Positions 1 through 63,092 are shown, numbered from the whole stretch's first letter. The stretch is 63,092 nucleotides of DNA, filler included, from Stramenopiles sp. TOSAG23-6 (GCA_900128565.1; 10 parts of 10 records of this genome joined end to end with filler, not necessarily neighbours in it); one strand, 5' to 3'. The notes: generated from the sequence alone by a model not told the origin. A program made the numbers and translations.

Positions 1-109
1 TTTTGGAAAAATATTTCAAAAAAAATCTAAAAAAATTGTTAGGTACAAAATTTACAATAAAACAAATTCGATTTTTTTTTTACCGGAAAAAAAAAAAAAT
101 AAAACATAC
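1..109 (-). other. Non-canonical family intron in UTP20, 3' end cut by contig end (copies at 6333-6441, 12665-12773)
   Basis: AT|GTATGTTTT donor at 109, TACCTAAC branch motif, AAATATTTTTCCAAAA. Confidence 0.8.
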
Positions 110-3100
110 ATGATATCATTGGTCAATAATCTTAATAATGTTTCATATTTTTGAGATATTTTTGATGTTGCACAGGAAAGAAATAACTTTTCAATGGCCA
201 TGAGAGATTGGTATACTTTTGCATCTTTTTGAGATTGAGTACTTATATCATCATCATCCATATTTTCAACATCATTTACATTTAACTCAGTATCTACTTC
301 AGTGAGTAAAATATCTTTAATACCAAAGATGGATGTCTGTACATATTTGGTACAAGATAATAATGCGTCAGGTCTAGCATCGATCAATATACCAATTAAT
401 TGGGCAGCAGCAAGTCTCAATTTATCTTGTTGAGATGAAATCCATTTCATTACAAATTCAATCATTTCTTCTGCTTTTTGAAGAGAACACTTTCTCAGTA
501 ATAAATTCAAGGTATTTGATATCATACGCCGACAATCTGAGTTATGTATTTTGGAAAAATATTTCAAACAAAATCTAAAAAATATTGTTAGGTACAAATT
601 TTTTTTGAAAAAAATAAATTCGATTTTTTTTTTTTTTCGGTAAAAAAAAAAAAAAATAAATAAAACATACATTATCATTGACAAGTCGTAAAACAAGAGG
701 AAGAAACAATAACCCTGATTGATCATCAATTAGTTCTTTTGGAAACTTTTGAATAATTTTACCTAGAAATTTTAATAATGATAGTCGACCTGTATCGTAG
801 GGAAATGATAAATTTTTCATTACATGATCAATATGATTTTGTAATCGTTTCTTGCCTAATGGAAATAAAATTAAGTATAACATCAAAACTTCAGAACATG
901 AAGAACGGATTATATCATGCTGTGACGTCACCATACAATCCTGTAACTGTTCCATCAGAGTATACATCTCAACCGTCACAGTTTTTCTCTTGACTAGAGT
1001 TTTAATTAACTCAAAAGATGCTTTTTGTTTTTTTGGTATTTGAATACCCGACGATAGTAAATCAATCAAACACGATATTTGATTTGGGGTCAAAGTATAG
1101 TCTGAATGATGGCGTAGTAGAACACTAAGTGTGTGAAAACAACCTTGTGCCAAGTCAGCTTCTGCTGCTGCACCAAAATGGCCCAATACAGATAATAATC
1201 TGTTTACAATTCGAGGCATGAAAGACGGTAATGAAGGTAATTTCCACGAACTTAGTAATGACAGACATTTCATACTGAGCAACATTAATTGATCATTTTT
1301 TGTTCGATCACAACAACGTGTTAATAATCCAAGAATTGGATCCAATAGAGATAAATGTGATACATCATTTCGCTGTAATTTACCTTTTTTAAGAAAGGAA
1401 TATAAAGCTAATAAGGCATACTCTACAACAACATACTCATTTGCAGTAGCATAAGAGTGGTCGATGCCACGTGTCGTTAAACATTTACCACCAGTCAACC
1501 TTGGCTCGGGCAATACTTCATAATTATCAGCTTTATGACCATTACTTAATTTCATCTTTGAAGTTGTATCATCTGTATTGACTAACCATTTTTCGACTTC
1601 TACATTACCTTTTCCAGATTCAATTTTCATTCGACGTTTTGTTGTTGCTTTTGTATACCCAGATACAATTTTTTGTAAATAAATCATTAGATGAGGAATT
1701 TCTACACTATTATTTTGTACTAATCCTAAAGTAGCTCTTCGAAAAAGTTCTCTTATTTTGTTAATCGTTTTTTTGTCAACAGTTTCATTTAATTTTTCGC
1801 GAAGTGGTGTAAGAACAACATGAACGGCATCTGAAGGAAGAAATTGCATTGAAGTGAATAAAATTTCAAATGTGTCAAAACTTTTACACGTTTTGACTTC
1901 ACGCATTTGACGATGAGCATTTGAAACACCTGAATCAATTTCCTTTTGAATCGATGCCTGGCCAAAAATATCTTCTAACACAGTAGCTAATACAGTAGGA
2001 ATTATTCGCCATATTACCGAGTGATCCATTGGAACTTCTTTCGCGTCAAGAGCCTCATAAAACTCTTCAGGATGGAGTTTACTTTCAGAATCATCATCAC
2101 CACGTTCCTGACGCCATTTCAGTCTTTGATCTTTCCGAAATTGTTGTTGTTCATTCATTTCAATAATACTTTTCTTCATTAATTCAGTCTCAGGTTGAAG
2201 TAAAGATTTATCATAGAGATTACGAAGTACTGCATGTAGCGTATATCCCATAATGTGTACCATATAACCCTTATTCAAAGCATCATGTAATTGTTCAACA
2301 ATCATTGGAAGCTTTTGCAAACCAATCAAACACGAAATTTCCACCAACACATTTCGTGCTTCATCTCTTGCGTGTTGTGCTTTAACACGTAACACACGGC
2401 ATACAGATCTTGTTAATTGAGATATCGATGGATCACATATTGCACTTGGTAATTGCATAAGTAAACGAGTGAGTGCTAATGCAATCGGTGTTCGTACAGT
2501 TACTTGCGTCAAATCACTATTATGTCCCTCACCTCGACTTACTACACGGCGTATTAATTGCTTTTGTAATGGGGGGAGTAGACGAACTTGGATTGCACGT
2601 AATATAGATTGAATGGATACACATTTTGATGTTCCAATAGTAGCATCTGTTTCTGTTTCAATCGTAGCATCGAAATCACTTTTGATATTTTTAGGTACAA
2701 AAACATGAAAGCCGTCAAGCATCGCACATATTGCACGAATCAAAACCTTTTCAGAATTTGGTTTTCTTGGAACTTCTTCAATTAATTTAGTAATTTCTGA
2801 AATATATTTAGACCAACTCAAACGCTGAGATAAAGGTGTTAACACTCGAATTGCTTCCTCTCTAAGATCTGCTTTTATTGAAGTTTCACTTTCGCGAACT
2901 TTGGCTAATACTAAAGGTAACAAAATGTGTACCACAGTGAATGGTTTCAAGTCAAGTGAACCTAATGAGCCTTTATCCCCTGCTTGAACACGTAATCTCT
3001 GTAAAGCCTTCACCTGTCTATGAGCTTGAACATGAGTCATATTCAAGAAAAAATCCTGTTCAGGATCTATATGCTGCAACTGCTTTAAATCAGTATGCAT

Positions 3101-6100
3101 TGCAGGATGACAATCAGCAGGAAAATGAGACACAACATCTGACAATAACAACAACATTGAATGGCGAACAATAGGCTTTACAAATTGACCTGAAAATGTT
3201 GCTCTAATACCTGGCATCACTGTAGTTAGCATTAATCTATTACAATGAAAATTGGATACTTTTGTAGATAAAAACTTGACAGACAAACTCAGCATCCGAT
3301 GAGCATATTGGCGAATAAGCATTTCATCATTATGTATATCAAACATACACTGACTTAATATAACTTGCAGGAGGATTTGTTGATTGTTTTCTCGCATGCC
3401 AATTTCACATAATTCAATTATTGTATCTGGAATCTCAATTTTCTTTTCTTTGCATTTAGAAATCTTTTTTAATGTTTTTGAATTTTCATTAATAGGTTTT
3501 TTTATATGACTATTTTCTTGATTTTGTTGAATTGATGTTTTCGTCAATATGTCATACACTTTACCACGCTTTACAAAATTAAGTTCTTCTAGACCTTCCC
3601 AGCTATTTAGATCAGAAATGAATGAAGAAACAGTAGTAAACCAAGTCATATCAGATCTTTTTCCAATAGTAGAAAATACATCCACTAATAATTGACGTGT
3701 TACACGATCGTCATATCCACACATACTTGCAGCAGGACCAAGTAATGTCGCAAACAAGCCAATGTGTGACATGATTACACATTTTGGAACAATAGACACT
3801 AAGGATAGCAAGACTCGTAAAACATTGTTTTTGATTGCTATAGTTGCACGAGCAGCAGGGCGTAAAAAGGGTACAATTAGTTTTACTAATGGGGCAGCAA
3901 TTGTCGAGGATTTGATATACTTACTAATCTGTGATAAGATTGCTAATGCACGAGGAGCAAAAGGTGACTTCACAATTCGTTTATCACTTCCACCGAAACG
4001 GCTTGTGAAACATGTCAATATTTTTGGAATATATGAACGTAATAAACCTTCTGTACTTGTTGCTTTTGACGTTTGAGGTAGTAAATGTTCTACAATACTC
4101 AATACAGCTGAAACGACGCTTTCACTGACATCTTCACAGAGACAATCTAATGCTGCACTTAAAGGGCATATTTCATTTTGAACATTTTCATCTATTTTTT
4201 CATCGTCAACGTTTTCATCTACATTTTTATACTTATACACCAACATATTCGAGACGTCCTCATGCTGACTAGCCAAAACTTGAATAAAGTTCAATAATGC
4301 TGAAGGTTTAGTAGCCCCAATGAGTGAAGAAGACAAATTTTCAACACTACTTTGTAATGCATTCATATATATTTTGTACCAAAATGACCAATTGTAATCC
4401 GGATAGGTTTCAATAATAATCGACATTACATTGATACATAAAGAACGCAATTGTCTTCCATCTCTACCAGTAATATTTGAACTAATGCATTGTAGACCAA
4501 TGATTGCTGGTAACACAACATGTAATTTTGGTCGAAATTTTTGTCCAAATTGTTTTACCATATCAATACATAAATTAAGAAATCCAATACGCCTTGCACG
4601 ACTTACACCATTGTTATATACATTTGCTTGTGCTACTTCAATTACACTTGACACACGGTCTTCAACATCTTTGACGCTGACAGGAAATGAAACGTTATCA
4701 CAAGTATCAAATACAAATAGGTTTTCTTCTTTCGATGAAGATAAATTCGAAATTCGTACAGGATAAAAAGGACGAATGGCATGACTTGCAATAAATCCCA
4801 ACTCTTTCGGTTTTAATGTAGACAAATACGCGAGAACTGCATTACGACGATTTGATACACTTTCCTTCGCTTTCATTTTTCGTTCAATAATTCTACCCAT
4901 CAACAACCGAACAATGATTGGAATAATTCCATTGCGATATATATCTGGTATACTTCCACACAAACCTGCTTCATTTTCTGGTTCAAGTTTTAAAGTTCGC
5001 ATTTCATCTTTCCACGTGTCACGATTAGATAGTCTTAGTAATGCAGAACTATATTGATTTAAACTACCTTGTTTAAAAGCTAAAACACATTTTAAAGCAG
5101 AGGAAGATATTTCAGATTTACCTAATAAAATTACACAAGATCTATGTAATCTCCTGGATTCATAATTACCCTTTAAATTTTGAAAAGTCGAAAATAGTTC
5201 TAGAAATGCAGCAATGCGTTCATTAGTGCTTTTTATGCTTACACCATTATGTACATCATTATTATCCTCATCATCATCATCAGAAGTCTTAGCAAATGTT
5301 TTGTTCATCATTTGGTTTGACATAAACGTTTTAATTATTTCTTTTTCTGAAATTTCATTTTGTGTAGAAATTGATAACAATTCCCAAGCATCAGGATCAT
5401 TTTGAAATGATATATTACTATATTCACAAGCAATGCATCGAAAAAATAACGAAATTAAAAATTTGTTTTTAGATTCTGCTAAAGTTGGCATGCCTTGTAG
5501 TAGTTGTAATAGTAAAGACAATTTTTTACTAGGACCCGTAGGATCAGTATCAACAAACACGAAACCAGCGACTGACGATGAACGTAAAGCACGATTAAAT
5601 GAAGAAAATAATGAAATCACATTTTTCGTGTTTTTCGTATTGAATATTTCATCTTTTGATCTCTGACCAGTTAGTTTTGCACGTAAATTTCGACGTTTTC
5701 GATTCTCATGTTCAACAAGTTGTTTCGTTTTAACTGTGTGATCCTGATTTATTTGATTCATATTACATAAAATGTCAAGATTTTCAAGATTTTCAAGATT
5801 TTCTCTTTCTTTTTGTACATCCATTGAAGACTGACCATACCCACCACCCAATTCCTGCTCAAATATAGCACGTGTCAATTGACGAGCAGCAAGCGGCCAC
5901 AATAGGCTAGTTACTTTTGGTGTATTCGATACACTTGAAAATATACTTTTTATAGTTGGCCAAATTCGATTGTATCTGACATTAAATAGACCAATAAAAT
6001 GTTGTAATGCAAAACGAACGTATATACGAGGCAAGCGACTGTTCTGCAAATACACTTTAATATGTTCCATTCTTGCTCTTACGTCACGATCGCTTTCAAA

Positions 6101-6232
6101 ATCTCTTGATTTTCTTTCGATGAATAATAATTGTTCAAATAAAAGACATTCTGTCCCAGGAATATTTCGTGTTGTACTATTTTCAGAATTATTTTCAGAA
6201 TTATTTTCAGAATTATTTTCAGAATTATTTTC
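110..6232 (-). CDS. UTP20: UTP20 (U3 snoRNP/SSU processome HEAT-repeat protein), partial at both ends; exons 6232-671 and 543-110
   Basis: Large HEAT-like ORF with UTP20/DRIM-type motifs (DPEQDFFLNMTHVQAHRQVKAL, GYMVHIMGYTLH, LFPLGKKRLQNH, FLPLVLRLVND). Frame is open from the contig end at 6232. Removing 544-670 joins ..LVNDN to NSDCRRM.. in frame. Confidence 0.88.
544..670 (-). other. GT-AT intron, 127 nt, phase 0, UTP20 (copies at 6876-7002, 13208-13334)
   Basis: AAT|GTATGTTTT..TACCTAAC..AAATATTTTTCCAAAATACAT|AAC; joins two out-of-frame ORFs. Confidence 0.85.
6178..6232 (-). repeat. 12-bp coding tandem repeat (ENNS)n at contig break
   Basis: (TTATTTTCAGAA) about 4.5 copies on + strand. 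Confidence 0.9.
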
Positions 6233-6332
6233 NNNNNNNNNNNNNNNNNNNNNNNNNNNNNNNNNNNNNNNNNNNNTTAATTAATTAANNNNNNNNNNNN
6301 NNNNNNNNNNNNNNNNNNNNNNNNNNNNNNNN
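6233..6332. other. Artificial contig linker (N44-TTAATTAATTAA-N44); also at 12565-12664, 18897-18996, 25227-25326, 31555-31654, 37874-37973, 44191-44290, 50493-50592, 56795-56894
   Basis: Same 100-nt spacer with six-frame stop cassette; flanking contigs sorted by length. Confidence 0.97.
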
Positions 6333-6441
6333 TTTTGGAAAAATATTTCAAAAAAAATCTAAAAAAATTGTTAGGTACAAAATTTACAATAAAACAAATT
6401 CGATTTTTTTTTTACCGGAAAAAAAAAAAAATAAAACATAC

Positions 6442-9400
6442 ATGATATCATTGGTCAATAATCTTAATAATGTTTCATATTTTTGAGATATTTTTGATGT
6501 TGCACAGGAAAGAAATAACTTTTCAATGGCCATGAGAGATTGGTATACTTTTGCATCTTTTTGAGATTGAGTACTTATATCATCATCATCCATATTTTCA
6601 ACATCATTTACATTTAACTCAGTATCTACTTCAGTGAGTAAAATATCTTTAATACCAAAGATGGATGTCTGTACATATTTGGTACAAGATAATAATGCGT
6701 CAGGTCTAGCATCGATCAATATACCAATTAATTGGGCAGCAGCAAGTCTCAATTTATCTTGTTGAGATGAAATCCATTTCATTACAAATTCAATCATTTC
6801 TTCTGCTTTTTGAAGAGAACACTTTCTCAGTAATAAATTCAAGGTATTTGATATCATACGCCGACAATCTGAGTTATGTATTTTGGAAAAATATTTCAAA
6901 CAAAATCTAAAAAATATTGTTAGGTACAAATTTTTTTTGAAAAAAATAAATTCGATTTTTTTTTTTTTTCGGTAAAAAAAAAAAAAAATAAATAAAACAT
7001 ACATTATCATTGACAAGTCGTAAAACAAGAGGAAGAAACAATAACCCTGATTGATCATCAATTAGTTCTTTTGGAAACTTTTGAATAATTTTACCTAGAA
7101 ATTTTAATAATGATAGTCGACCTGTATCGTAGGGAAATGATAAATTTTTCATTACATGATCAATATGATTTTGTAATCGTTTCTTGCCTAATGGAAATAA
7201 AATTAAGTATAACATCAAAACTTCAGAACATGAAGAACGGATTATATCATGCTGTGACGTCACCATACAATCCTGTAACTGTTCCATCAGAGTATACATC
7301 TCAACCGTCACAGTTTTTCTCTTGACTAGAGTTTTAATTAACTCAAAAGATGCTTTTTGTTTTTTTGGTATTTGAATACCCGACGATAGTAAATCAATCA
7401 AACACGATATTTGATTTGGGGTCAAAGTATAGTCTGAATGATGGCGTAGTAGAACACTAAGTGTGTGAAAACAACCTTGTGCCAAGTCAGCTTCTGCTGC
7501 TGCACCAAAATGGCCCAATACAGATAATAATCTGTTTACAATTCGAGGCATGAAAGACGGTAATGAAGGTAATTTCCACGAACTTAGTAATGACAGACAT
7601 TTCATACTGAGCAACATTAATTGATCATTTTTTGTTCGATCACAACAACGTGTTAATAATCCAAGAATTGGATCCAATAGAGATAAATGTGATACATCAT
7701 TTCGCTGTAATTTACCTTTTTTAAGAAAGGAATATAAAGCTAATAAGGCATACTCTACAACAACATACTCATTTGCAGTAGCATAAGAGTGGTCGATGCC
7801 ACGTGTCGTTAAACATTTACCACCAGTCAACCTTGGCTCGGGCAATACTTCATAATTATCAGCTTTATGACCATTACTTAATTTCATCTTTGAAGTTGTA
7901 TCATCTGTATTGACTAACCATTTTTCGACTTCTACATTACCTTTTCCAGATTCAATTTTCATTCGACGTTTTGTTGTTGCTTTTGTATACCCAGATACAA
8001 TTTTTTGTAAATAAATCATTAGATGAGGAATTTCTACACTATTATTTTGTACTAATCCTAAAGTAGCTCTTCGAAAAAGTTCTCTTATTTTGTTAATCGT
8101 TTTTTTGTCAACAGTTTCATTTAATTTTTCGCGAAGTGGTGTAAGAACAACATGAACGGCATCTGAAGGAAGAAATTGCATTGAAGTGAATAAAATTTCA
8201 AATGTGTCAAAACTTTTACACGTTTTGACTTCACGCATTTGACGATGAGCATTTGAAACACCTGAATCAATTTCCTTTTGAATCGATGCCTGGCCAAAAA
8301 TATCTTCTAACACAGTAGCTAATACAGTAGGAATTATTCGCCATATTACCGAGTGATCCATTGGAACTTCTTTCGCGTCAAGAGCCTCATAAAACTCTTC
8401 AGGATGGAGTTTACTTTCAGAATCATCATCACCACGTTCCTGACGCCATTTCAGTCTTTGATCTTTCCGAAATTGTTGTTGTTCATTCATTTCAATAATA
8501 CTTTTCTTCATTAATTCAGTCTCAGGTTGAAGTAAAGATTTATCATAGAGATTACGAAGTACTGCATGTAGCGTATATCCCATAATGTGTACCATATAAC
8601 CCTTATTCAAAGCATCATGTAATTGTTCAACAATCATTGGAAGCTTTTGCAAACCAATCAAACACGAAATTTCCACCAACACATTTCGTGCTTCATCTCT
8701 TGCGTGTTGTGCTTTAACACGTAACACACGGCATACAGATCTTGTTAATTGAGATATCGATGGATCACATATTGCACTTGGTAATTGCATAAGTAAACGA
8801 GTGAGTGCTAATGCAATCGGTGTTCGTACAGTTACTTGCGTCAAATCACTATTATGTCCCTCACCTCGACTTACTACACGGCGTATTAATTGCTTTTGTA
8901 ATGGGGGGAGTAGACGAACTTGGATTGCACGTAATATAGATTGAATGGATACACATTTTGATGTTCCAATAGTAGCATCTGTTTCTGTTTCAATCGTAGC
9001 ATCGAAATCACTTTTGATATTTTTAGGTACAAAAACATGAAAGCCGTCAAGCATCGCACATATTGCACGAATCAAAACCTTTTCAGAATTTGGTTTTCTT
9101 GGAACTTCTTCAATTAATTTAGTAATTTCTGAAATATATTTAGACCAACTCAAACGCTGAGATAAAGGTGTTAACACTCGAATTGCTTCCTCTCTAAGAT
9201 CTGCTTTTATTGAAGTTTCACTTTCGCGAACTTTGGCTAATACTAAAGGTAACAAAATGTGTACCACAGTGAATGGTTTCAAGTCAAGTGAACCTAATGA
9301 GCCTTTATCCCCTGCTTGAACACGTAATCTCTGTAAAGCCTTCACCTGTCTATGAGCTTGAACATGAGTCATATTCAAGAAAAAATCCTGTTCAGGATCT

Positions 9401-12400: not shown

Positions 12401-12564
12401 ATTCTTGCTCTTACGTCACGATCGCTTTCAAAATCTCTTGATTTTCTTTCGATGAATAATAATTGTTCAAATAAAAGACATTCTGTCCCAGGAATATTTC
12501 GTGTTGTACTATTTTCAGAATTATTTTCAGAATTATTTTCAGAATTATTTTCAGAATTATTTTC
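6442..12564 (-). CDS. UTP20: UTP20, redundant contig copy 2
   Basis: Identical ORF translations, offset +6332. Confidence 0.85.
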
Positions 12565-12773
12565 NNNNNNNNNNNNNNNNNNNNNNNNNNNNNNNNNNNN
12601 NNNNNNNNTTAATTAATTAANNNNNNNNNNNNNNNNNNNNNNNNNNNNNNNNNNNNNNNNNNNNTTTTGGAAAAATATTTCAAAAAAAATCTAAAAAAAT
12701 TGTTAGGTACAAAATTTACAATAAAACAAATTCGATTTTTTTTTTACCGGAAAAAAAAAAAAATAAAACATAC

Positions 12774-18700: not shown

Positions 18701-18896
18701 GACTGTTCTGCAAATACACTTTAATATGTTCCATTCTTGCTCTTACGTCACGATCGCTTTCAAAATCTCTTGATTTTCTTTCGATGAATAATAATTGTTC
18801 AAATAAAAGACATTCTGTCCCAGGAATATTTCGTGTTGTACTATTTTCAGAATTATTTTCAGAATTATTTTCAGAATTATTTTCAGAATTATTTTC
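12774..18896 (-). CDS. UTP20: UTP20, redundant contig copy 3
   Basis: Identical ORF translations, offset +12664. Confidence 0.85.
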
Positions 18897-18996: not shown

Positions 18997-19175
18997 TGTT
19001 CTTGTTCAAGACGTAATCTTTCAGCTTCAGCCTTCTGTTGTTGTTCAAGACGTAATTTTTCAGCCTCGTCTTTTTGTTTTTGTTCGAGACGTAATCTTTC
19101 AACCTCATCTTTTTGTTCTTGTTCAAGACGCAATCTTTCAGCTTCATCTTTCTGTTCTTGTTCAAGACGTGATTT
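18997..19175 (-). repeat. 39-bp coding repeat (EQEQKDEAERLRL-like), coiled coil
   Basis: Repeated 13-aa unit running into the contig end. Confidence 0.8.
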
Positions 19176-22100
19176 TCTTTCCTCTATTTCGTTTTTGCGG
19201 CGTATAATTTCAGCTTTCTCTCGAGAACTTTGCACTTCTGTTGTTTTTACATCTCTTTCATTTTGAAGTTGTTTCACATTACACATATTGCCATTGCAAA
19301 CTTTCTCTTGAAACAATGGGAGATGTCCATCCTCAACTTTGTTACCTAAAGACCCTGAAATCGATCCATTTGCTTTAGATGTTTCATTCCAATTATACAG
19401 ATCTCCATTTGAGTCCATAAAACCACGAATAAGTTGTTTTGATTGAGGCGGTTCATCTGGTAATACTATGAATGCAGACTGTATATCGGTAACAGCTTGA
19501 CCTAAATCAACACCATCTTCTAAATTACGGCTAGTATATGCTATTGCTAATAAGTCTCCCTTGTTTACTTTAGTGTGTCGTTTGGCTCTCAGTGTTATAC
19601 CTGCGGAGTAATCAATAATATCACCAGCAAAGCGACGACCACTTCCTAAATTTACTGAAATCTCGCCTAATTTTTTTGTATCAATTTTGTGTATATATCC
19701 AGAATAAAGACTAATTACATCAGCTTCAAATTGAGGAATATGGATTCTCTGCCTCAAGGTTGTTTCTTTGTACGATCGTTTTACAATATGATTCGGAATT
19801 GATAATGGCGGGAAAATATTCTCAGAGTTAGGTGAAATATCTATAAACACTCTTGAATCGCCCCCTTGATCAACAACCATGGAAAGGAAACGTTGTGCAG
19901 CACGGCCATCTAGTAGCGCTTCTTCCGCAAGCTTATATCCCAACTGAAAATCATCTGTCTGTTTTGATGCGACTAGCATTTGCGCTGCAAGAGTAAGTAC
20001 TAAATGCACAAGATCAGGCGACCCATTTCCCTGTAAAGTCGCCCAAGCTTCTTCTACCTCTGACCAATTCCCAATAGCATTACCCAATGGTTGATCCATA
20101 TCAGTGAAAAGTACAGTTGTTTTTACTCCAGCAGCATGACCAGCCGATACCATGCACTTTGCAAGTTTTATCGCATCATGCTTATTAGGGAGGATAGCTC
20201 CATTTCCAATCTTAACATCCAAAACAATTGCACTTGCACCACCTGCTAGCTTTTTACTCATTATAGAACTACAAAGAAGAGCCAAACTTGGTGCTGTACC
20301 AGTCGCATCCCGAATCTCATAAATCGCTTTTTCAGCAGGGGCTACTTCTGCAATGGGTGATATAATTCCAACCCCTGAACTTCGTAAAATTTTGGTGAAT
20401 TCAAAATAATCTAGATCAGTATTGAAACCTGGTATGGAATTAAGTTTGTCGATAGTACCTCCCATATGGGAAAGACCTTTGTTAGATATCAATGGAACAA
20501 CTACACCGAGAGAAGCAGCAAGTGGAGCAAGAATTAAACTTGCTTTATCACCAACACCACCAGTGCTATGTTTATCTACAGTATTTATTTGTTCAAGCTC
20601 AACTCGCTTGCCGCTGTCAATATAGGCGTCAGTGAGATCTGCTATTTCTGAATTTGTCATTCCTACAAGTTGAATAGTCATTAAAAAGGCACTCATTTGA
20701 TTTTCAGTAACCGACCCATCCATAAATCCAGTAATAACATTATTTACGTCTTTTGCTGATAACACCTTACCGTCTCTCTTCTTTGCAATGACCTCACTCA
20801 TTGAGAATCGTATTATTTCTTTTTTATTTTCTTTCTCATTGTTCTCTGTCATTTCATTGCAGATAATTGCAGGAGGTGCTGGGAATCCGCCTCCTTTTCG
20901 AAAATTAAGATGTGCCACAATGTTCTTTAGTTGAGTATCGTCAATTTGAAAATAAGGACATAACTCATATTCTAGAATTTGAGTTTGTGATACCGAAGTA
21001 TTAGGAAAAACCGCGCCTGCTTTTAAAAGTTTTTGATTATAAACATCTAGAAGGATACTACTTGACGTTTTAATAGAATTTTCCACAGCAGTCTTGCTCC
21101 AATTACTATGTACAGGCGCATACTCACCATTAACACCATACCTTTCAACGTACAAGGCCACAGCATTATCAGCAAATCGAATTGCGTCGCCTATAACACG
21201 TTCATACTTAAAACCATTCAGCTTTGTTGGGGGAGTTTTTACCGCACCATCTTTACTAATGGTACCAATTCCAACTGGAACTTTGTGATAGTATAATTCA
21301 TCAGAATGGTCTAACATTTTCTTCGCAAAGTTGTTACTTAAATAAATATTTGTAATATCTTGCTTATCATATTCAAGATTTGTTACTTTAGCTTTGGGTG
21401 TGTTAAAAAGACTCTCATTTTTCAATCTACCCAAAAATTGGTTTTCGAGTGATTCAGATGTACTATATATAGAATAATTGAAACCAGAACCATCCTTATG
21501 TAAAACACCTGAAATATCACCATTATCACGAACTCTTCGAACAACTTTGAATCCAATATCCATGTATTTTGGCAAAATATTTCAAAAAAAAATCGTTAGG
21601 TACACAATTTCGTACGAAAAAAAATAAATTCGAAATTAAAATTGAAATGAAAACGTACATATTACGCTCAATATTTAATCCTATAAAAATCGGGTCGGCA
21701 ATTCGAGTTAAAGCATTGTCAGCAGAAAACAGAAATAAATGTTCAACGCCTGCTCTTTCCCATTGCAAGTCAATTGCATGTTTCTTCATCGCCGCAAAGA
21801 CTGCACCATGGCCATCAGGACTCATAGCGATACTACCATCTAGGTTATAAACAGGCATACCGTCTATGCCTACACAGGGTAATTGCGTCTGTTCAAAAAA
21901 ACGAACTTGGGCACTATCTAAGCCAAAGAACTTATTGTCTTCAAAGAAATCACGTGTTTTCCTTGAAGAACTAACACTTGTCATAATAAAAAAAGGAATG
22001 GCTGGGGTAAGAAGCATTGTCTGTAAATGAAGAAGCTGTTTAGCATACAATCCAAACAAACTTGTTTTTGAAGGTATTTCTAATGCAAGCATTCCTTTTG

Positions 22101-22907: not shown

Positions 22908-24315
22908 ATGACTATCCAACCTTCACTTCAGTTACAATGTGAAAATTCAGACCGCAATCGTAGTGACTCTTTTAGTGGTGAATTTGAAGGACCAGAAAAA
23001 ACTTTGGAGATTGATTTTGTACAAGATTATAGAGTAGGTAATGTTCCTCTTTGTAAACTCGGAGCTCGATGCCTCCCGCGATCTGTTTGGGATGAACTTT
23101 GTGCTGCAGCAAACTGTAGTATATTGGATGTTGTGCGAGGAACTCACTTTGACTCCTATATCTTATCAGAATCTAGTTTGTTTGTTTACCCTTGGAAAGT
23201 TGTCATTAAGACATGTGGTACAACAACATTAGTAAAAACAGTCCCTATACTATTAATACATGCCAAGAAATCAAATTTAAAGGTAGAGTGGGTATGTTTC
23301 CAACGTAAAAATTATTCATTTCCTGAACGGCAGTTGCCACCTCATACGTCTTTTGCATCAGAGTGTGATTATTTAAATCAATTTTTTGATGGAGATGGTT
23401 TTGTATTAGGCCCAGTGACAAATGATCATTTTTTGTTGTATGTTGCAGACGACACAAAATGGACGACGATAGCGTCTAAAGATAGAACTATTCAATTACT
23501 AATGTACGACTTGCATGAAGAAGCTGCAAAAATATTTTATAAAAAATCTCATGGATCAAATGGCGCAGATGCTGTATGCAATGCTCTTGGTCTACCTTTA
23601 CTCATACCTCCTGATAAGGGGAATATTCATGGGCATATGTTTGATCCTTGTGGATATTCAATGAATGCTTTACTGGATGACGCTTACTTCACTATACATG
23701 TTACTCCTGTATGTTTTTTTTTTTTTTTTANAAAAAAATCGAAATTTTTTTTTCGTACGAAATTTTGTACCTAACAAATGTTTTTAGATTTTTTTTTGAA
23801 ATATTTTTCCAAAATACATGAGTCGCATTGTAGTTATGCGAGTTTTGAAACAAATATACAGATTCGTAATTATCAACCAATGTTGAAGCATATACTATCT
23901 GTATTTTCACCAAAACGATTTACAATGACTGTTTTTGCCGATGAAGGAGGCCTTAAAGAAATGACTTGTATGTTTTATTTTTTTTTTCAAATTTGATTTT
24001 TTTTTCGTACGAAATTTCGTACCTAACAAATTTAAGTTTTTTTTTTTTGAAATATTTTTACAAAAAACATGTCCAACAGACCTTCACTGTCTGATTGTTG
24101 AAAGTAAATATTTTTCTACGAAAACACTAGAAAGAAAAAACCCTAACCCTAAGCAAATTCATACAACAAAACCAACAAAACAAAATGTACAAACAGAAAA
24201 TACAAATTATATCAGATATTACCGGTTAAATAAATGCCATGCTGAATTTGCTTGTGATTATTCATGCTCAATGTCAAATTTTATCATGAGAAAAGACAAA
24301 GATATTTTATCATGA
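22908..24315 (+). CDS. AMD1: S-adenosylmethionine decarboxylase proenzyme; exons 22908-23708, 23820-23967, 24071-24315
   Basis: FEGPEKTLE, YILSESSLFV (pyruvoyl cleavage site), KTCGTT, FDPCGYSMN. Splicing restores TIHVTP|ESHCSYASFETN. The last exon is open to TGA at 24313-24315. Confidence 0.92.
23709..23819 (+). other. GT-AT intron, 111 nt, phase 0
   Basis: CCT|GTATGT..TACCTAAC..CCAAAATACAT|GAG; restores the conserved TPE motif. Confidence 0.9.
23968..24070 (+). other. GT-AT intron, 103 nt, phase 1
   Basis: ACT T|GTATGT..GTACGAAATTTCGTACCTAAC..ACAAAAAACAT|GT; downstream frame open. Confidence 0.8.
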
Positions 24316-24500: not shown

Positions 24501-25174
24501 CTAATTGTCCATTGCAAATTGTTTTTTTTCATCAGTCTCCAAGTCATCAAATTCTATGAAAATATATTTCAAAAAAAAAAATCGTTACGTACAAAATTTC
24601 ATAATATAAAAAATTTGAAATTCTCTCATGATGGAAAACATACATATAAATCACTCTTTACATTTGCCATATAGAAACGTTTTTGTAGTCTATCCCCCGG
24701 GTTTCCATTACTTTGTAAATAAATGAGAGTAAATCCTCCCACATGTTGGGTGAAAAAAATATTTTTTTTTTTTACAAAAAAAAATCGTCAGGTACAAAAT
24801 TTTGTATAAAAAAAATAAATTCGAAATTGGTAAAAAACGAATGATGAAAACGTACATTACTGTTAACGACATTTTCTAGATCTCCTTCTTGCTCCAACAT
24901 TGCACTAGGAGAATGAGATAACTTGGAGAAAGGAGATGGCCAGTACTGAAAATAAGCTACTGTTGAGGTTAGATAACCCAGTATAAAACCCATAAGAATA
25001 TATTGTGAAAAAATATTAAAAACGAAACATTTCGTTAGGTACGGAATTTTCTATGAAAACAAATGTAGGTAAAAAATTTATCATGAAAATGTACATGTTC
25101 CACCAATGATGCCTTCTATCAATTAATCGACTCAAACCTATTACAAGTGAACCTAATATTAGTGAAACACATAC
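24501..25174 (-). CDS. PAP2 / lipid phosphate phosphatase family protein, 5' partial; exons 25174-25095, 24997-24856, 24742-24644, 24548-24501 (last acceptor tentative)
   Basis: Spliced product reads GLSRLIDRRHHWWNILMGFILG, matching the PAP2 C3 motif SRxxxxxHxxxD (D replaced by N), flanked by hydrophobic helices. Confidence 0.72.
24549..24643 (-). other. Family intron, ~95 nt; acceptor TTT (alternative TAG at 24554)
   Basis: TAT|GTATGTTTT; branch variant TACGTAAC; end placed by the usual 15-nt spacing after AAATAT. Confidence 0.6.
24743..24855 (-). other. GT-AT intron, 113 nt, phase 0
   Basis: AAT|GTACGTTTT..TACCTGAC..CACCCAACAT|GTG; following 99-nt exon is open. Confidence 0.78.
24998..25094 (-). 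other. GT-AT intron, 97 nt, phase 2
   Basis: AAC AT|GTACAT..TACCTAAC..CACAATATAT|T CTT; restores the PAP2 motif. Confidence 0.82.
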
Positions 25175-25226
25175 AAGTATTGTGAAAAAATATTTCAAAA
25201 AAAAAAAACTAAAATTTGTTAGGTAC
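25175..25226 (-). other. Family intron 3' part, probable CTT acceptor
   Basis: TACCTAAC..AAATATTTTTTCACAATACTT|GTA; donor lost at contig end. Confidence 0.65.
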
Positions 25227-25326: not shown

Positions 25327-25379
25327 TGTACCTAACAATTTTTTTTAGATTTTTTTTGAAATATTTTTCCAAAATACAT
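25327..25379 (+). other. Family intron 3' part (CAT acceptor)
   Basis: TACCTAAC..AAATATTTTTCCAAAATACAT|GTG at contig start. Confidence 0.75.
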
Positions 25380-26814
25380 GTGTTTGCGGATGGTAGGATT
25401 AGTGTTACTTGGGAAGCAGATGGTTCCATCAGTGAAATGGAGTGCAATTCTGCCAATGTCTTACCAAATGATTGGGATAAATGGATGGATTATGACAACG
25501 ATGGATGGGTTGATGGATTGTGGGTTCGTTGTGTTGATGATGAAGATAGACTATATTATTTTAATACAGCTACTGAAGAGACACAGTGGAATAAGCCAAT
25601 TTTGGACATAGAAAATAGCGATTACATGTCTGACAGTTCACTGGAATATTTACACCAGAAATCCAAAGAAAACAAAGCAATTGTTGCATTTGCAGAATGG
25701 GCACCAGTACCTGACGAAGAGGAAGACGTCGAAAATACCAAAGTAAACGTAAATTCTGAAGTAGACGTACAAGAAGCAGCAGGTACAACCAGTACAGAAG
25801 AAATTGCGGTATCAATGACTGAATCAATTCCTGAGAATGATTTAGGAATTGTGCGATCTATTGCGGCATATAATCCAAATATAGAAGACAATAGAGAAGA
25901 AACTGTTAATGGTGAAGATGGTGATGCCGGAGGAAGTTTACACGAATTGCATCTTCGTGAAAACGATCTTATTCGTGTATTTCATCAACAGGAAGATGGA
26001 TGGTGGTATGGCCAGCGTTGTTCAGGAACAGCTGTAGATTATAAAGATGATCAAGAAAACGACAAAAAGACTAATGAAAACGTTGATGAAAAAGATGACC
26101 AAAATTATATATCTAGTGGTAGCGATTTTGGTTGGTTTCCATCAACATATGTTGAATGGGTTGAAGAGGTCGGTGAGGTTGTTGCTGTAGCAGATTATGT
26201 TCCTGACTCAGGTTTAGAAATGCAATTACTATTATCGGAGGGCGATAGAGTCAGAGTACTACAACAAGAAGATAGTGGCTGGTGGCATGGAATGAATCAA
26301 TTTGGTGTATGTGGTTGGTTTCCATCTACATTTACATCATGGTGTGAATATGATGAAGAAGAGTCATATAATAATGATGTTACTGTTGATAATACAAATA
26401 TGAAAGACTCTATAAAAGTGAATAGATTACATAATATTGATGATTATAATCAACCACAAGAAATAGAAAGTGATACAGATAGCGAATCGTCAAGTTATGA
26501 GGAAGACAGTAATTCTCTTAAAACTATGCAATTTAGTGTGAATGAAGTAGTTGAATCTAGATTTAGAGGTAAAGACCGTTGGTATATGTACGTTTTCATC
26601 ACGATTTGTTTTTTTTTTTCGTACCAAATGTTGTACCTAACGAATTTTTATCCAAAACAAAAATATCTCTTCACAATACATTGGTAAAGTTGTAACAGTC
26701 AACCGAAACTCATATGATATTTTGTATGATGATGGGGACCTTGAAAAAACTGTTAATCTAGATTATGTTCGACCTCGTGGGACGAAAACAGCACAAGAGT
26801 TGAGAGTAGAGTAG
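25380..26814 (+). CDS. WW + two SH3 + Tudor/Agenet-like domain protein, 5' partial; exons 25380-26587, 26682-26814
   Basis: WW (WVRCVDDEDRLYYFNTATEETQWNKP); SH3 x2 (GWWYG..GWFPSTYV, GWWHG..GWFPSTF); spliced C-terminus RWY-I-GKVVTVNRNSYDILYDDGDLEKTV is Tudor-like. Confidence 0.8.
26588..26681 (+). other. GT-AT intron, 94 nt, phase 2
   Basis: TAT AT|GTACGTTTT..TACCTAAC..CACAATACAT|T GGT; no AG between branch motif and junction. Confidence 0.87.
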
Positions 26815-30808: not shown

Positions 30809-31468
30809 ATGGATATCGATGGTGGGGGTGGAGTGGTTGATGATTTGTCAGTAAAAATGCAGTGTATTCCGGCAACACCAGACTCACAAATAGAGGATCG
30901 AATGGACACTGATTTTGATAGTAGACCCTGGTGGCCAACAGGAAACTGCCAAGTCTATTCTCAATCACACGCTCGTTTTGTCCATGATCCTCAAATCAAG
31001 TTAACCCCTCTAGAATGTGATGTTTTTGGTATTATCCGTGAAGCAATTAGTTTAGGTAATACTGGGACTGTGGCCCGTTGTGCTGGTGGATGGGTTCGTG
31101 ATAAGTTGCTTGGCAAAAGTAGTGATGACATTGATATTGCTCTAAACAATATGAAAGGTACAGAGTTTGCTTCACTTGTGCAACAAGTAATTCGTGGTCG
31201 TCTAGGAGAAGAAAGTGTAGATCGGGTACATACTATCAAGGCTAATCCAAGTCAATCGAAACATTTGGAAACTGCAACAATGTACGTTTTTCAAAATTGA
31301 ATTCTTTACCTACATTTATTTTTTTTTTACTACAAAATTTCGTACCTAACACATTCCAATTCTATATTTTTTTTAACAATCCATGCGAGTTTTAGGTATT
31401 GACGTAGATTTTGTACATTTAAGAACTGAGACTTATACAAAAGGTTCACGAATCCCATTGATAAACAT
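30809..31468 (+). CDS. CCA1: tRNA nucleotidyltransferase (CCA-adding enzyme), 3' partial; exons 30809-31281, 31385-31468
   Basis: RCAGGWVRDKLLGKSSDDIDIAL; splicing gives SKHLETATM-RVLGIDVDFVHLRTETYTKGSRIP. Confidence 0.9.
31282..31384 (+). other. GT-AT intron, 103 nt, phase 2
   Basis: ACA AT|GTACGTTTT..TACCTAAC..AACAATCCAT|G CGA; first downstream AG is out of frame. Confidence 0.87.
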
Positions 31469-31554
31469 GAACGTTTTATTTTTTTCAATTTCGAATTTAT
31501 TTTTTTCGTACGAAATTTTGTACCTAACAAATTTAAGTTTTTTTTTTTGAAATA
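31469..31554 (+). other. Family intron with GA donor, 3' end truncated
   Basis: AAC AT|GAACGTTTT..TTTCGTACGAAATTTTGTACCTAAC. Confidence 0.7.
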
Positions 31555-31654: not shown

Positions 31655-31731
31655 TTTCTAATTTAATTTTTTTTTCATACGAAATTTCGTACCTAACGAT
31701 TTTTTTTTTGAAATATTTTTCCAAAATACAT
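31655..31731 (+). other. Family intron 3' part (mirror copy at 37797-37873, - strand) before a probable terminal exon of an unknown gene
   Basis: TACCTAAC..AAATATTTTTCCAAAATACAT|G. Confidence 0.72.
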
Positions 31732-35063: not shown

Positions 35064-35114
35064 GTATGTTTTCAAAATTGAATTTCAAATTTTTTTTTTG
35101 TACCAAATGTTGTA
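35064..35114 (+). other. Family intron 5' part, interrupted by the inversion junction
   Basis: TCT T|GTATGTTTT..TGTACCAAATGTTGTA, then switches to the reverse copy. Confidence 0.7.
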
Positions 35115-37973: not shown

Positions 37974-38027
37974 TACGAAATTTTGTACCTAACGAAAAAT
38001 CATTTGAAATATTTTTCCAAAATACAT
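37974..38027 (+). other. Family intron 3' part (CAT acceptor)
   Basis: TACCTAAC..AAATATTTTTCCAAAATACAT|G at contig start. Confidence 0.75.
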
Positions 38028-40736
38028 GAAAAAAAGATACAAACGATATCGAGCAGCAGTGCGTTGTTGGAGAGAAAGACATGCAAGGCCTCTTGTAAAC
38101 CGTGTAGAACAACACATTGCTCGTGAAATTCGTAATTATATGGAAGTTCAATCTTTGCGAACAAAAAACGATATTCGAATGACACGTATTATTTTTAAGA
38201 GATGGCGGAGAGAATCGAGAAAATCTCGTCCACACGTCAAAGCAAAAATGTCAAAAGTCTTACAAATGCTAAATGAACGAAACTCTCGTACACTAAAACT
38301 TTGTTTTCAAAGTTGGGGGCTTTGTGCGAATGGAAAGGGGAGTTGTAAAGCTGTAAAAGCTGCATATAGAGCTAGGTATATAAAGGCGAGAGCTACGGTA
38401 AAAGATAAATCACGAATTAAAGGAATTATTGCAAAAAGTGAGATTTTACGACAATTAAATTGCGATGCGACTGCAATCATTCGTGCAAACCATACAAAAT
38501 ATTTAATGCTCACATGTTTTAGTGCATGGGAATATGATACACTTTCAAAATTTAGATGGAAAGTTAGTCAAGCAAATCGACATTTTTTCATAACAACGAC
38601 AAGCAAATGTTTCCAAGCTTGGCATTATTATATTGATATGGTTTTATCAGGATTACCTGGTGCACCTCGGGAAGGTGCGCAGAGGTTTCAATCACTACAT
38701 AATCAAAATGCAATACATCAACACTGGCGACGTAGTCATCTACGAAAGCATTTAAAGTATTGGAATATTTATTCTAAACCGAGAGCACACGTTCGAAGGC
38801 TAGAGAATGAACATGTAGGTTCCCATACTGAATTTCAAATTTAGTTTTTTTTTCATATGCAATTTTGTACCTAACGATTTTTTTTTGAAATATTTTTTTA
38901 TAATGTATGCAAACAAACGTGCTAGATGGGCCATTGACACGTGGAAATGTAGAACGATTTGGTCAAAACGTATGAAAGCCTTGTGTGTGTCAGAATGGAA
39001 AGATTATGGTGAAAGACTTATGTCAGTACCTTTTCGAGCATGGTTTTGTTGGGCACATGTACGTTTTCATTATGAATTTTATTTATTTACTTTTTTTTTT
39101 TAGTATGAAATTTTGTACCTAACAATTTTTTTTTGGTAAAAAAAAAAAAANATATTTTTTCACAATATATGAAAGAAGGATACGAAAAACAACAAAACGA
39201 GTCATCGTCAGCGCATTTCGACGTAGAAAAATGTATCATAGAAAATACCAAATATTTAAAGCCTGGAAACATTTAGCAATGTTTGGTAAAGTGGAAGGCT
39301 TAAAGAGTAGGGTATCATGTACGTTTGCAAATTTAAAATTTTACCTACATGTTTTTACTATGAAAATTTTGTCCCTAACAATTTTTTTTCTTAAAGAAAA
39401 AAAATATTTTTTCACAATACATTGATAAAAGCATTACAAGAACAAAATACATTTGCAGTGGCACTCGAGGAAACAATCGATAAATTACAAGATGAATTAG
39501 AAGTATCAGAAGCCGCATTGAAATCCCAACAGGAGGAAAATAAAGAACAACTGGAAAAACATGAAGACTTGTACGTTTTCAAAATTGTATTTTAATTTTT
39601 TTTTTGGTAGAAAATTTGTACCTAACGAATTTCAAATGTAAAATATTTTTTAAGAATACTTGGAGCATAAATTCCAAAGACATGAGTTTGCGTTGCATAC
39701 TGCGGAAGCAGAAATAGTTCGGTTGCAGTCAATAATTGATGCTCTCACAATCATGTACCCTAGTACAGTAAAACTTTTGGATGATGCTGCTGGAGGAAAC
39801 CCAAAAGATGAAAATAAAGCTGTACATGAAAATACTGATGACAATCAAATAGATACAGCGAATGACGATGCTGACATTCTTGATTTAAAACCTTTTGTGA
39901 GAATGAGAATTAAAGAATCCAATGAAAATGATGATGATGCTACAGAAGTGAAAAGTAAAGAATCCAATGAAAAAGATTCTACCAAAGATAGCACGAAACA
40001 AAAGATTACACTGAATTCTATGCCAAGCACAGAAGAACTTGTTATAGATTCTAGTAATGATTCCAGTAATGTAATTAACAGTATACAAAGCCCAGAAAAC
40101 AAGGTCGTGGGCTCTAGTAATGACTTAAATGTTGCCACTTTGAAAGCAACCACTACAGTCACAGAGGAACAACAAAACGTTGAATCTGTGGATGCAAATC
40201 AAACCAACACACCGGCAAGTGACTCTACTAATAATGTAAATGATAAAGCTCTACAAATGACTCAAAAAAGCGAGTCTAATAAAATACTAGCCACCTCAAT
40301 GAAAGCATTGAACACAAATAATCAAGAGTTATTACCTGCACTTGACAGAATGATTCTTGCAAGATCTAAAACAGTGCTTGTAAAAGTAGGATTACTTCCA
40401 GAGGATGAACAAGACAAAATATTTCGTATATCTAATATGGAACGAATAACATTAGGGAGTATAGTTAATACAGAGGCTGTCTCTTTACTCCACTTTATTG
40501 GTACAGGAAAACCCGTTCGCAATGATTATGTTAATGAGACATCAGAAACATTTTCAGACTTTCTTCGAGGTATAGAGTTAATGTATCCACTATCACATCC
40601 TCTTAATATTTCCGCGCGTTCACAACTACAAGCTCGCATTGCTCGTGCTAAATCTAGACATAATGATAAATTAAACTTGCAACTGACAGGGGATGGGAAA
40701 GTGAACATATATAGAGAAGGTGATAATGATAAATAA
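38028..40736 (+). CDS. Sfi1-repeat-like (putative centrin-binding) coiled-coil protein, 5' partial; exons 38028-38814, 38909-39058, 39171-39318, 39423-39570, 39662-40736
   Basis: Recurrent FxxW motifs (IIFKRWR, CFQSW, CFSAW, CFQAW, PFRAW, IFKAWK); removing four family introns gives one continuous ORF. Confidence 0.65.
38815..38908 (+). other. GT-AT intron, 94 nt, phase 0
   Basis: CAT|GTAGGT..TACCTAAC..ATAATGTAT|GCA. Confidence 0.78.
39059..39170 (+). other. GT-AT intron, 112 nt, phase 0
   Basis: CAT|GTACGTTTT..TACCTAAC..CACAATATAT|GAA. Confidence 0.8.
39319..39422 (+). other. GT-AT intron, 104 nt, phase 1
   Basis: TCA T|GTACGTTT..TCCCTAAC..CACAATACAT|TG. Confidence 0.8.
39571..39661 (+). 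other. GT-TT intron, 91 nt, phase 2
   Basis: GAC TT|GTACGTTTT..TACCTAAC..AAGAATACTT|G GAG; joins to the 39660 ORF in frame. Confidence 0.75.
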
Positions 40737-44098: not shown

Positions 44099-44190
44099 GT
44101 ATGTTTTATTTTTTTTAATTTTTTTTCAAATTCGTTTTTTTTTTTTTGAAAATTTTGTACCTAACAATTTTTTTTAGATTTTTTTTGAAA
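44099..44190 (+). other. Family intron, 3' end truncated by contig end
   Basis: TAT|GTATGTTTT..TACCTAAC..TTTGAAA. Confidence 0.75.
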
Positions 44191-47005: not shown

Positions 47006-48857
47006 ATGATTGACCAATTTTCTGTGTTCTCTAAATCTGGAGTTGTCCTTTGGTGTAGTGAAGAGTATGAGGCTCCAGGGTCTCCTGTAAACAAATTAGT
47101 ACAACAGGTCCTTTTAGAGGGTCGTTCTTCAGAGTCTCAATTTGATCAAGGAAGTTACAGTATAAAGTGGCGCTTCATGAATGATATGGATCTTGTTTTT
47201 GTTTGTGTTTACCAAAAAATATTAAAGTTATTGTATGTTGAGGAACTTCTTGATAAGGTGAAGAATGCATTTTTATCTCATTTTGAAAACGAAGAGAATC
47301 TATCGGACCGTCACTTACCTGTAGATTTTGATGTTATGTATAAAGACATTCTCGAGGAAGTTGAGTTGGGCCAGCTTCGGCGGAAGCCACGTGAAATGCG
47401 TGGATTTGTTGCAAAAGAAAAAGGGCAACGAAATGGGGTAAATGGTAGTCAGAAGACAATGACAAAAGCCGAAAAAAAACGGTTGAAAAATGGCGGGGAC
47501 GAAAACTCGAAACCATTCACGTCGCGAGTAAAACGTGTCATGCGAGGTTTTGTGAAGAAAAACAAAACAAAGAAGAATAATAAAGATAATGATGACAATC
47601 AGAAGAAAATTCCAAACAGGTCATGGAATGATGCTTCGTCATTAAATAGGCCAATATCAAAAAAAGATATTGCTAAATGGAATAAAAACGAATCTGAACA
47701 AGGAATAGCAGCCGGGGATTGCGAGGAAAAAATGATATTAGGCGAGTCCCAGATGGAAATTTTAACTGATGATGATTCTAGTGATGAAGACGTAAATGAT
47801 AAAAACGAAACAAGTAAATCTAGTTGGAGCTTTGGAGGTGCGATGGATTTTCTCAAAGGTTTATCTGGAAACAAACCTTTGAAACGATCTGACATTGATG
47901 AGGCTTTAACCACAATGGAACATCAACTAATAGAAAATAATGTTTCAAGAAATATAGCATCAGATTTGTGTGAAAGTGTTGCTGCAACACTGATTGGTAA
48001 TAAAGTTGGTACTTGGATGAATTTGCAGAAACTTGTAAAAGATTCTTTGAAAGATGCTATGACTCGTGTTCTCACCCCAAAAAAATCAATTGATGTTTTA
48101 CGTTCTGCCTTCCAAGCGAAAGCAGAAGGCCGTCCTTATTCTATTGTATTTATTGGAGTCAATGGCGTTGGAAAGTCCACATCGCTATCAAAAGTATGTT
48201 ATTATCTATTACAAAAAAAGCTTTCGGTATCTATTGCTGCATGCGATACCTTTCGTTCAGGTGCGGTCGAGCAGTTGAAAGTACACGGACGACGCCTTGG
48301 TGTTAATATATTTGAAAAAGGATATGCAAAAGATCCTGCCCAGGTAGCAACAGCAGCTATTAAAGAGGCAAAGAAGGAAGGTACTGACGTAGTCTTGATA
48401 GATACAGCCGGGCGTATGCAAAACAATACAAAGTTGATGAAAGCCTTGGCTAAGTTAGTCACTGATACGAAACCTGATTTAGTTTTATTTGTTGGAGAGG
48501 CTCTTGTTGGAAATGATGGTGTTGATCAGTTAAAATTTTTTAATCAAGCATTGGCGGATAATTCATCAGCAAGTACACCTAGGTTGATTGATGGTATCGT
48601 GTTGACAAAATTTGATACTATTGATGATAAAGTTGGAGCTGCTTTGTCAATGGTTTATGTACGTTTTCCTCATTCAGTTCAAATTTGTTTTTTCTGTACC
48701 AAATTTTGTACCTAACAATTTTTTTTCAACCAAAAAATAAATATTTTTCACGATATATGAAACAGGACAGCCAATACTTTTTGTTGGAACTGGTCAAAAG
48801 TATACTCATCTTCGACGGCTTAACGTACAAACTGTGGTAAAGGCGCTTTTTAAGTAA
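47006..48857 (+). CDS. SRPRA: Signal recognition particle receptor alpha subunit; exons 47006-48658, 48759-48857
   Basis: N-terminal longin (SRX) domain, [18 protein letters not shown]; splicing restores [27 protein letters not shown]. Confidence 0.95.
48659..48758 (+). other. GT-AT intron, 100 nt, phase 0 (copy at 54961-55060)
   Basis: TAT|GTACGTTTT..TACCTAAC..AAATATTTTTCACGATATAT|GAA. Confidence 0.9.
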
Positions 48858-51561: not shown

Positions 51562-51624
51562 ATATTAGAAAAATAAATGAAAAGTGTAGTTTATTTTATT
51601 CTAGATATGCCCGAGTTAATCGGG

Positions 51625-62979: not shown

Positions 62980-63092
62980 GTACGTTTTTTAATTTTACTT
63001 TTTTTTTTTTTTTTTTTTGAAATATTTTTTTTTTCGTACGAAATTTTGTACCTAACGATTTTTTTTTTTTTTTTTTAAAATTTTTTTCAAAA
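62980..63092 (+). other. Family intron, 3' end truncated by window end
   Basis: TCT T|GTACGTTTT..TTTCGTACGAAATTTTGTACCTAAC. Confidence 0.75.

Follow-up and report, generated by a model that had tools for sequence, protein, structure and literature searches.

The stretch flagged at 544-672 in the AT-rich DNA of the marine stramenopile Stramenopiles sp. TOSAG23-6 (GCA_900128565.1) most likely represents a member of a high-copy, introner-like family of ~91-127-nt introns, which are removed from GT to AT and have spread by copying. The whole stretch of DNA analysed, 63,092 nucleotides with filler, is referred to as the window. On the minus strand, the flagged copy is preceded by the exon dinucleotide AT (672-671) and reads GTATGTTTT...GTACCTAAC...TGAAATATTTTTCCAAAATACAT, with the removable unit running from 670 to 544. 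Both the existence of one copy-derived family and its removal at a non-AG end are well supported.

Introns in unrelated genes form one family

The window comprises ten contigs of 6,198-6,232 bases each, which are ordered by length and separated by N44-TTAATTAATTAA-N44 spacers (6233-6332 and eight more). The contig at 1-6232 is present three times (repeats within 6333-18896) and the contig at 44291-50492 twice (second copy 50593-56794), in both cases at 100% identity, which leaves seven unique contigs and ~40.8 kb of unique DNA. All family counts refer to unique copies. The GC content is ~29-39%, and the unique DNA is divided into 79% coding sequence, 5.2% intron family, and 15.7% other non-coding sequence. 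As judged from an open frame of 1885 codons, all three standard stop codons terminate translation.

A hidden Markov model (HMM) profile of the family, built from 14 complete copies and searched over the window, identifies 23 unique copies, of which 14 are complete, while contig ends or a chimeric join truncate the other nine. Complete copies measure 91-127 nt, in agreement with the narrow length range remarked upon in an earlier reading made from the DNA alone (the sequence-only reading). The copies reside in at least ten mutually unrelated host genes. Pfam names UTP20 (UTP20_N/UTP20), UDPGP/pyrimidine-nucleoside-phosphorylase, SH3/WW, protein kinase, transportin-like, and nucleotidyltransferase genes among them, and AdoMetDC and SRP receptor alpha are further hosts. 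The 23-mer 3' block has 11 matches in the window at ≤3 mismatches (duplicate contigs counted), compared to 0.01 expected.

All parts of a short intron are recognizable in the copies. The donor is the yeast-like GTAYGT, present as GTATGT or GTACGT in 16 of the 19 copies with a 5' end, while the exact branch-type box GTACCTAAC is found in 19/22 copies in which this region is kept and is located 33-47 nt from the 3' end. The copies also share T-rich tracts and a conserved 3' block ending in ..AATAYAT. For a comparison of the interiors, the first and last 8 bases as well as the branch box were removed, and the two remaining segments were set against 100 dinucleotide shuffles. Both segments are more alike than 100/100 shuffles (z 17.6 and 11.5). 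Moreover, 3' halves among the UTP20, SH3/WW-gene, and AdoMetDC copies are 96%, 94%, and 93% identical, and subfamily blocks recur in different genes, namely a T-run/A-run hairpin with TTTTAGATTTT, the block AAATTTAAG, the block TTTACCTACAT, and a T-run followed by an A-run after the box. Thus, splice signals alone are insufficient to account for the likeness, and the shared interiors, 3' halves, and subfamily blocks point to copies descended from copies rather than to convergent signals. The sequence-only reading had proposed one repeat family with named internal blocks common to the UTP20, AdoMetDC, and SH3 genes; the single family is confirmed, and the blocks are found in all three genes. 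A likeness confined to short splice signals, which the same reading had named, together with ancient intron positions shared with distant eukaryotes, as refuting its proposal, is not what the interiors display.

The introns end in AT or TT

Exact removal is supported for five of the 14 complete introns including the flagged copy, three by gapless homology and two by RNA joints. Solved-structure references were matched per single exon. In AdoMetDC (copy at 23709), exon 1 ends with ..HVTP (5tvf_B residue 180, 1msv_A residue 246), and exon 2 starts at the next residue, a conserved Glu (5tvf_B 181). Exon 1 of SRP receptor alpha ends at residue 276 of 6y32_B, while residue 2 of its exon 2 corresponds to residue 278; the relatives P0002 and P0003 (~62% identity) read YETGQP, identical to the GT..AT model. 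The flagged UTP20 junction NDN|NSDCR is gapless in comparison to 13/13 homologues aligned (of 27 found). At the RNA level, one contig of the polyA seawater metatranscriptome run X2 joins 38812 to 38907 with 94 nt skipped and a junction slack of 3, and another consists of 39506-39566 and 39658-39728 with 91 nt skipped and a slack of 5. Both joints match predicted introns within slack. The copies at 39059 and 39319 show no joint among the 15 of 32 RNA joints listed, and large parts of the contig are without cover, which makes this result uninformative either way.

Only two boundary registers suit all five tested cases, GT..AT/TT and the same shifted one base to the left (TG..CA and similar), of which GT..AT is the more uniform reading. 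The canonical U2-type 3' end, an AG that is usually the first one past the branch point, is not found at these five of 14 junctions, which are fixed at AT or TT, and the AG at 39654, located 7 nt before the RNA-backed junction of the 39571 intron, is passed over. The assignment of the introns as non-AG in the sequence-only reading is thereby substantiated. An AG lies between box and junction in 6/14 copies. GT..AG alternatives are contradicted wherever tested: AdoMetDC would lose its conserved Glu and SRP receptor alpha four residues, the sole in-frame GT..AG alternative in UTP20 is a residue too short, and at 39571 the length skipped in RNA is 91 nt instead of 84. An AT..AC reading was rejected, as in AdoMetDC it would put another residue in place of the conserved Pro in HVTP|E.

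With the donor GTAYGT, a CTAAC-type branch box, and a pyrimidine tract, the remaining signals are those of U2-type introns. U12-type introns carry the donor RTATCCTT and the branch site TCCTTAAC ~10-15 nt from the 3' end. The present donor GTAYGTTTT and the box at 33-47 nt from the end argue against this class. A search of the window against Rfam gave no match, to snRNAs or otherwise.

In our model, removal from the pre-mRNA starts precisely at GT and stops at AT, or rarely TT, and intervening AGs are ignored. The signals suggest that the spliceosome performs this removal. The 3' cut would be set by the terminal block of the element itself, and neither the first AG nor a fixed distance would determine it.

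Exon context and terminal repeats

Upstream of the donor, the exon dinucleotide is AT in 14/19 copies compared to a background of 0.10 before exonic GT (P 8e-11), and exon position -1 is T in 19/19 copies (background 0.33, P 6e-10). The introns end in AT in 16/18 copies and in TT in the other two, followed by G at exon position +1 in 13/18 copies. The (A)TG context postulated before is evident from these counts. In 12/14 copies, the intron ends in the same two bases as the exon upstream of it, and 11 of these copies carry the invariant AT. Among the three informative copies for co-variation of this direct repeat, TT..TT matches, while CT..AT and TT..AT do not.

The inverted repeat ATGTA/TACAT is complementary in 11, 13, 13, 13, and 11 of 14 copies by position, and in-register pairing past it is absent (3, 1, and 5 of 14). 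As pairing stops after five positions, the imperfect inverted repeats described at the intron ends are real but comprise only these five positions, two of which are exonic, and 3 nt remain within the removed unit. In single-strand folding, the copies are no more stable than shuffles (mean z -0.73); the only exceptions are the two copies with T-run/A-run hairpins, and the ends are paired in the minimum-energy fold of 5/14 copies. These folds give no backing to the proposal that pairing of the ends brings the splice sites together.

Distribution of the copies

All 23 copies are in sense orientation and within genes. Antisense or clearly intergenic copies, which the sequence-only reading had suggested to look for, amount to 0/23 in the ~41 kb of unique window DNA, 15.7% of which is non-coding. 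The sole candidate outside genes, a weak fragment at 61503-61541 (E 0.02), was dropped because the match is too weak. A transposase is likewise not found within the window, as had been stated before. Nine of the 14 unique contig ends lie inside copies, or 8/13 without the mirrored end of a chimeric contig, which accords with the eight noted previously. This concentration of contig ends in a family that makes up only 5.2% of bases is as expected for a high-copy repeat that breaks a short-read assembly. The chimeric contig (31655-37873) is inverted, with 31655-34418 mirroring 37873-35110. Its join at ~35110 falls inside the family intron of the kinase gene and shows GTAACC microhomology; the inversion looks like an amplification or assembly artefact.

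The copies are listed below by position and strand.

544..670, minus: flagged copy in UTP20, 127-nt intron, GT..AT, exon AT at 671-672, T-run/A-run hairpin subfamily; duplicates through contig repeats at 6876-7002 and 13208-13334
1..109, minus: second UTP20 copy, 3' end lost at contig end; duplicates at 6333-6441 and 12665-12773
21562..21658, minus: copy in the UDPGP/pyrimidine-nucleoside-phosphorylase gene, 97 nt, 3' half 95% identical to the 31655 copy
23709..23819, plus: AdoMetDC copy, 111 nt, removed as GT..AT (or TG..CA)
23968..24070, plus: second AdoMetDC copy, 103 nt, upstream TT, 3' end AT
24551..24643, minus: copy in a small gene, 93 nt, AG 3 nt before the end, in-frame 90-nt GT..AG equally possible
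24743..24855, minus: copy in the same small gene, 113 nt
24998..25094, minus: copy with 5' GTACAT, 97 nt, no in-frame GT..AG alternative
25175..25226, minus: 3' part at contig end, ends in TT
25327..25379, plus: SH3/WW gene, 3' part at contig end, shares 96% identity with the flagged copy across 52 nt
26588..26681, plus: SH3/WW gene copy, 94 nt
31282..31384, plus: copy in the PolyA_pol-head (nucleotidyltransferase) gene, 103 nt, no GT..AG alternative
31469..31554, plus: 5' part at contig end, starts with GAACGT
31655..31731, plus: 3' part at contig end, ahead of a short SH3-like last exon; mirror at 37797-37873 is an assembly artefact
35064..35110, plus: 5' part in the protein-kinase gene, interrupted by the inverted chimeric join
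37974..38027, plus: 3' part at contig end
38815..38908, plus: copy GTAGGT..AT, 94 nt, spliced form in RNA, no GT..AG alternative
39059..39170, plus: complete copy, 112 nt
39319..39422, plus: complete copy, 104 nt
39571..39661, plus: copy GT..TT, upstream TT, 91 nt, spliced form in RNA, AG 7 nt before the junction
44099..44190, plus: 5' part at contig end in the transportin/importin-13-like gene
48659..48758, plus: SRP receptor alpha copy, 100 nt; duplicate at 54961-55060
62980..63092, plus: 5' part at contig end, upstream TT

The boundary of the 24551-24643 intron is ambiguous and could equally be the 93-nt family reading or a 90-nt GT..AG intron.

Origin and spread of the family

Several observations weigh against the interpretation as a copied GT..AT family. 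An in-frame GT..AG alternative using exon AGs is available in 10/14 copies, and 9/14 GT..AT boundaries are set by the family register and open frames alone. Each RNA joint is represented by one contig from one run, and an RNA library may hold DNA. Further, two of the three informative copies are without a matching duplication, and the palindrome is too short as proof of a transposon. The evidence is drawn from ~41 kb of unique DNA, and scans of public collections gave chance matches only: pattern scans of metagenome, prokaryote-genome, and viral collections returned 12, 2, and 1 loci, all 15 of which were treated as chance matches, and the family HMM, applied to the 12 metagenome loci, found nothing credible among them (best E 0.01).

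With regard to spread, common descent is suggested by the subfamily-specific blocks and by near-identical halves in unrelated genes, and copies would have entered coding sequence where it reads xT|G, in most cases AT|G. A small DNA element with a 1-2 bp duplication and an RNA-mediated route such as reverse splicing are both possible. The exclusively sense, genic placement of the 23 copies can be accounted for by selection or by an RNA-mediated route as readily as by a DNA transposon.

A strict DNA transposon, similar to a miniature inverted-repeat transposable element (MITE), can be put forward tentatively. It would move by non-autonomous cut-and-paste with GTA..TAC termini, and its 2-bp AT target duplication would become the 3' splice site. 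The 2-nt repeat, identical at both junctions in 12/14 copies including one TT..TT, and the five-position palindrome ATGTA/TACAT speak in favor of such an element, as does the precedent, described in PMC11282704, of introners that have inverted repeats at their termini and gain splice sites from their target duplications. However, the 3-nt inverted repeat within the removed unit is far below the usual MITE size, and the upstream CT and TT copies end in AT, so that 2/3 informative cases mismatch. In AdoMetDC, the upstream Pro codon is conserved, and thus the mismatch of the direct repeat is not due to an exon change. Moreover, no copy out of 23 is antisense or clearly intergenic despite 15.7% non-coding DNA, and the window is without a transposase. 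From the introner/MITE-like origin proposed in the sequence-only reading, one copied family at AT|G remains, while the MITE anatomy is thin, being limited to the five-position palindrome.

Somewhat unlikely, though with evidence of its own, is an RNA-mediated spread, in which the excised intron would enter transcripts by reverse splicing at xT|G proto-splice sites and then return to the genome as a copy, the AT end being intrinsic and formed without duplication. It is favored by the sense orientation of 23/23 copies inside coding sequence, by the exact coincidence of repeat unit and removed unit, by the T at -1 (19/19) and the G at +1 (13/18), which resemble a splice-site context, and by the two non-matching direct repeats. 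However, selection against unspliceable antisense or exon-disrupting copies yields the same bias, and the single TT..TT co-variation better suits a duplication. In the available portions of PMC7789003, PMC12130899, and PMC11282704, efficient reverse splicing and genomic fixation are not demonstrated for introners.

It is improbable that constraint alone accounts for the family, i.e. that old, unrelated introns are alike through long splicing signals of the lineage. The donor, the branch box, and the 3' block are indeed the most conserved parts, and the likeness is signal-like in being strict in orientation and position. This explanation is at odds with the likeness of the segments between the signals (z 17.6 and 11.5), with subfamily insertions and blocks common to unrelated genes and 3' halves that are 93-96% identical, and with the contig ends that pile up in the elements as for a high-copy repeat. 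Excision at the DNA level from somatic DNA, as for internal eliminated sequences of ciliates, is very improbable: a short direct repeat with one copy retained, inverted termini, and joined forms in RNA libraries, which by themselves are also compatible with a DNA origin, stand against strict sense orientation, the GTAYGT donor, and the CTAAC branch box as features of RNA splicing, against three stop codons that all act as stops and relatives that are stramenopiles, and against the assembled DNA, in which no interrupted gene is without its elements.

Beyond the GT..AT family as such, a further-reaching proposal is speculative but conceivable: one self-copying family with its own non-AG 3' end might fill essentially all intron positions of the lineage, and the major spliceosome might pick the 3' cut by the terminal block while passing AGs. 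This would represent an element-driven change of the acceptor rule. The AT end of that family was perhaps born as a tiny target duplication.

Consequences for annotation and splicing

The closest protein record, P0001, is identical in 542/544 residues to the GT..AT model of SRP receptor alpha; beyond close matches, the best relatives of this protein are oomycetes with ~45% identity, which places the organism among the stramenopiles. At the family intron, the junction of P0001 is wrong (Y-VRQP vs YETGQP). In addition, P0001 (gene 46988-48854) is without 11, 12, and 15 residues that relatives possess, and these deletions suggest that a gene finder mistook stretches of exon for introns. As standard gene finders mis-model these genes, the proteomes of the abundant group of uncultured marine grazers to which this organism belongs are likely damaged systematically. 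The AG acceptor is near universal, and a lineage in which all introns observed combine a textbook donor and branch box with an AT end would provide a clean natural case for 3'-site choice. The family is also relevant to the question whether the splicing rule of a host can be altered by a mobile element.

Other features of the window

In three seawater metatranscriptome runs, the summed contig depth is 3,665-5,197 over the family copy region 38806-39013 compared to 0-100 elsewhere on the contig. This depth indicates that these libraries contain numerous RNAs, or DNA, of other loci that bear the element. On the minus strand at 18999-22449, a UDP-glucose pyrophosphorylase-type domain and a complete pyrimidine-nucleoside-phosphorylase domain set share one frame, which is split by the intron at 21562-21658; such a fusion would be unusual, if real. 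The contig ends, at 6140-6232, in the 9-nt tandem repeat ATTTTCAGA, translated as an ENNS repeat where the UTP20 frame begins.

An intergenic tandem array at 28263-28513 has a 99-nt period, 2.5 clear copies, and 82% matches, with degenerate copies at ~27900-28900; as a relative of the intron family it was rejected, its likeness being no higher than that of shuffled sequence. The telomere-like motif CCCTAACCCTA is found on either strand five times in the unique contigs (24141, 30636, 40753, 58953, and 61271). Four of these sites are intergenic by position, whereas 24141 is in or just past the end of the AdoMetDC gene. The motif may be a promoter or terminator motif.

Comparison with known non-canonical introns

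Among the papers listed in literature searches, none gives an account of GT-AT introners in MAST-3; the word "introner" is absent from the 15 papers listed out of 38 matches in one search, and a 2018 paper on MAST single-cell genomes contains "intron" twice and "splice" never.

The introners of Micromonas pusilla and aquatic protists (PMC11282704, PMC12130899) likewise come in families, of the hundreds-to-thousands type, of short introns that resemble one another across unrelated genes; they have inverted termini, carry short direct repeats where intron meets exon, and lack coding capacity. They are described with canonical splice sites, target duplications of at least 3 nt, and recognizable terminal inverted repeats, whereas the present family has an AT/TT 3' end, a repeat of 2 nt (perhaps 1), and a five-position palindrome. 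Amoebophrya A25/A120 (Farhat et al, 2021, PMC7789003) shares repeated non-GT-AG introns, direct repeats at the borders, inverted repeats at the ends, and the lack of a general transposase partner. In contrast to Amoebophrya introns, for which this account gives no clear terminal dinucleotide signature, inverted-repeat hairpins of 8-20 nt, and the absence of U1, the present introns have uniform GT and AT ends, a yeast-like donor and branch box, a 5-nt palindrome, and a fold z of -0.73.

Fritillaria borealis (Henriet et al, 2019, cited via PMC11282704) is also a lineage with mostly non-GT-AG introns, which occupy species-specific positions and are tied to transposon insertion. Their ends are mainly AG-AC and AG-AT along with many others, while the present family keeps the GT donor and differs only in the acceptor. 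The nonconventional introns of euglenids and hemistasiid diplonemids (PMC12621601, PMC11282704) share non-GT-AG ends and duplication-like junction repeats, but are reported to be without a polypyrimidine tract and to need extensive end-to-end pairing. Neither feature is seen here, where T-rich tracts and a branch box are present and end pairing is weak (5/14).

Finally, GT-AT introns occur in animals, where they make up seven of the 66 non-canonical U12-type introns, and DGCR2 contains one conserved U2-type example (Sheth et al, 2006, PMC1557818). The family differs from the U12-type examples in its donor GTAYGT and in the distance of 33-47 nt between box and end. Animal GT-AT introns, as presented there, prove that GT..AT termini are spliceable, but they are isolated exceptions, whereas in the present family GT..AT is the rule across the copies observed.

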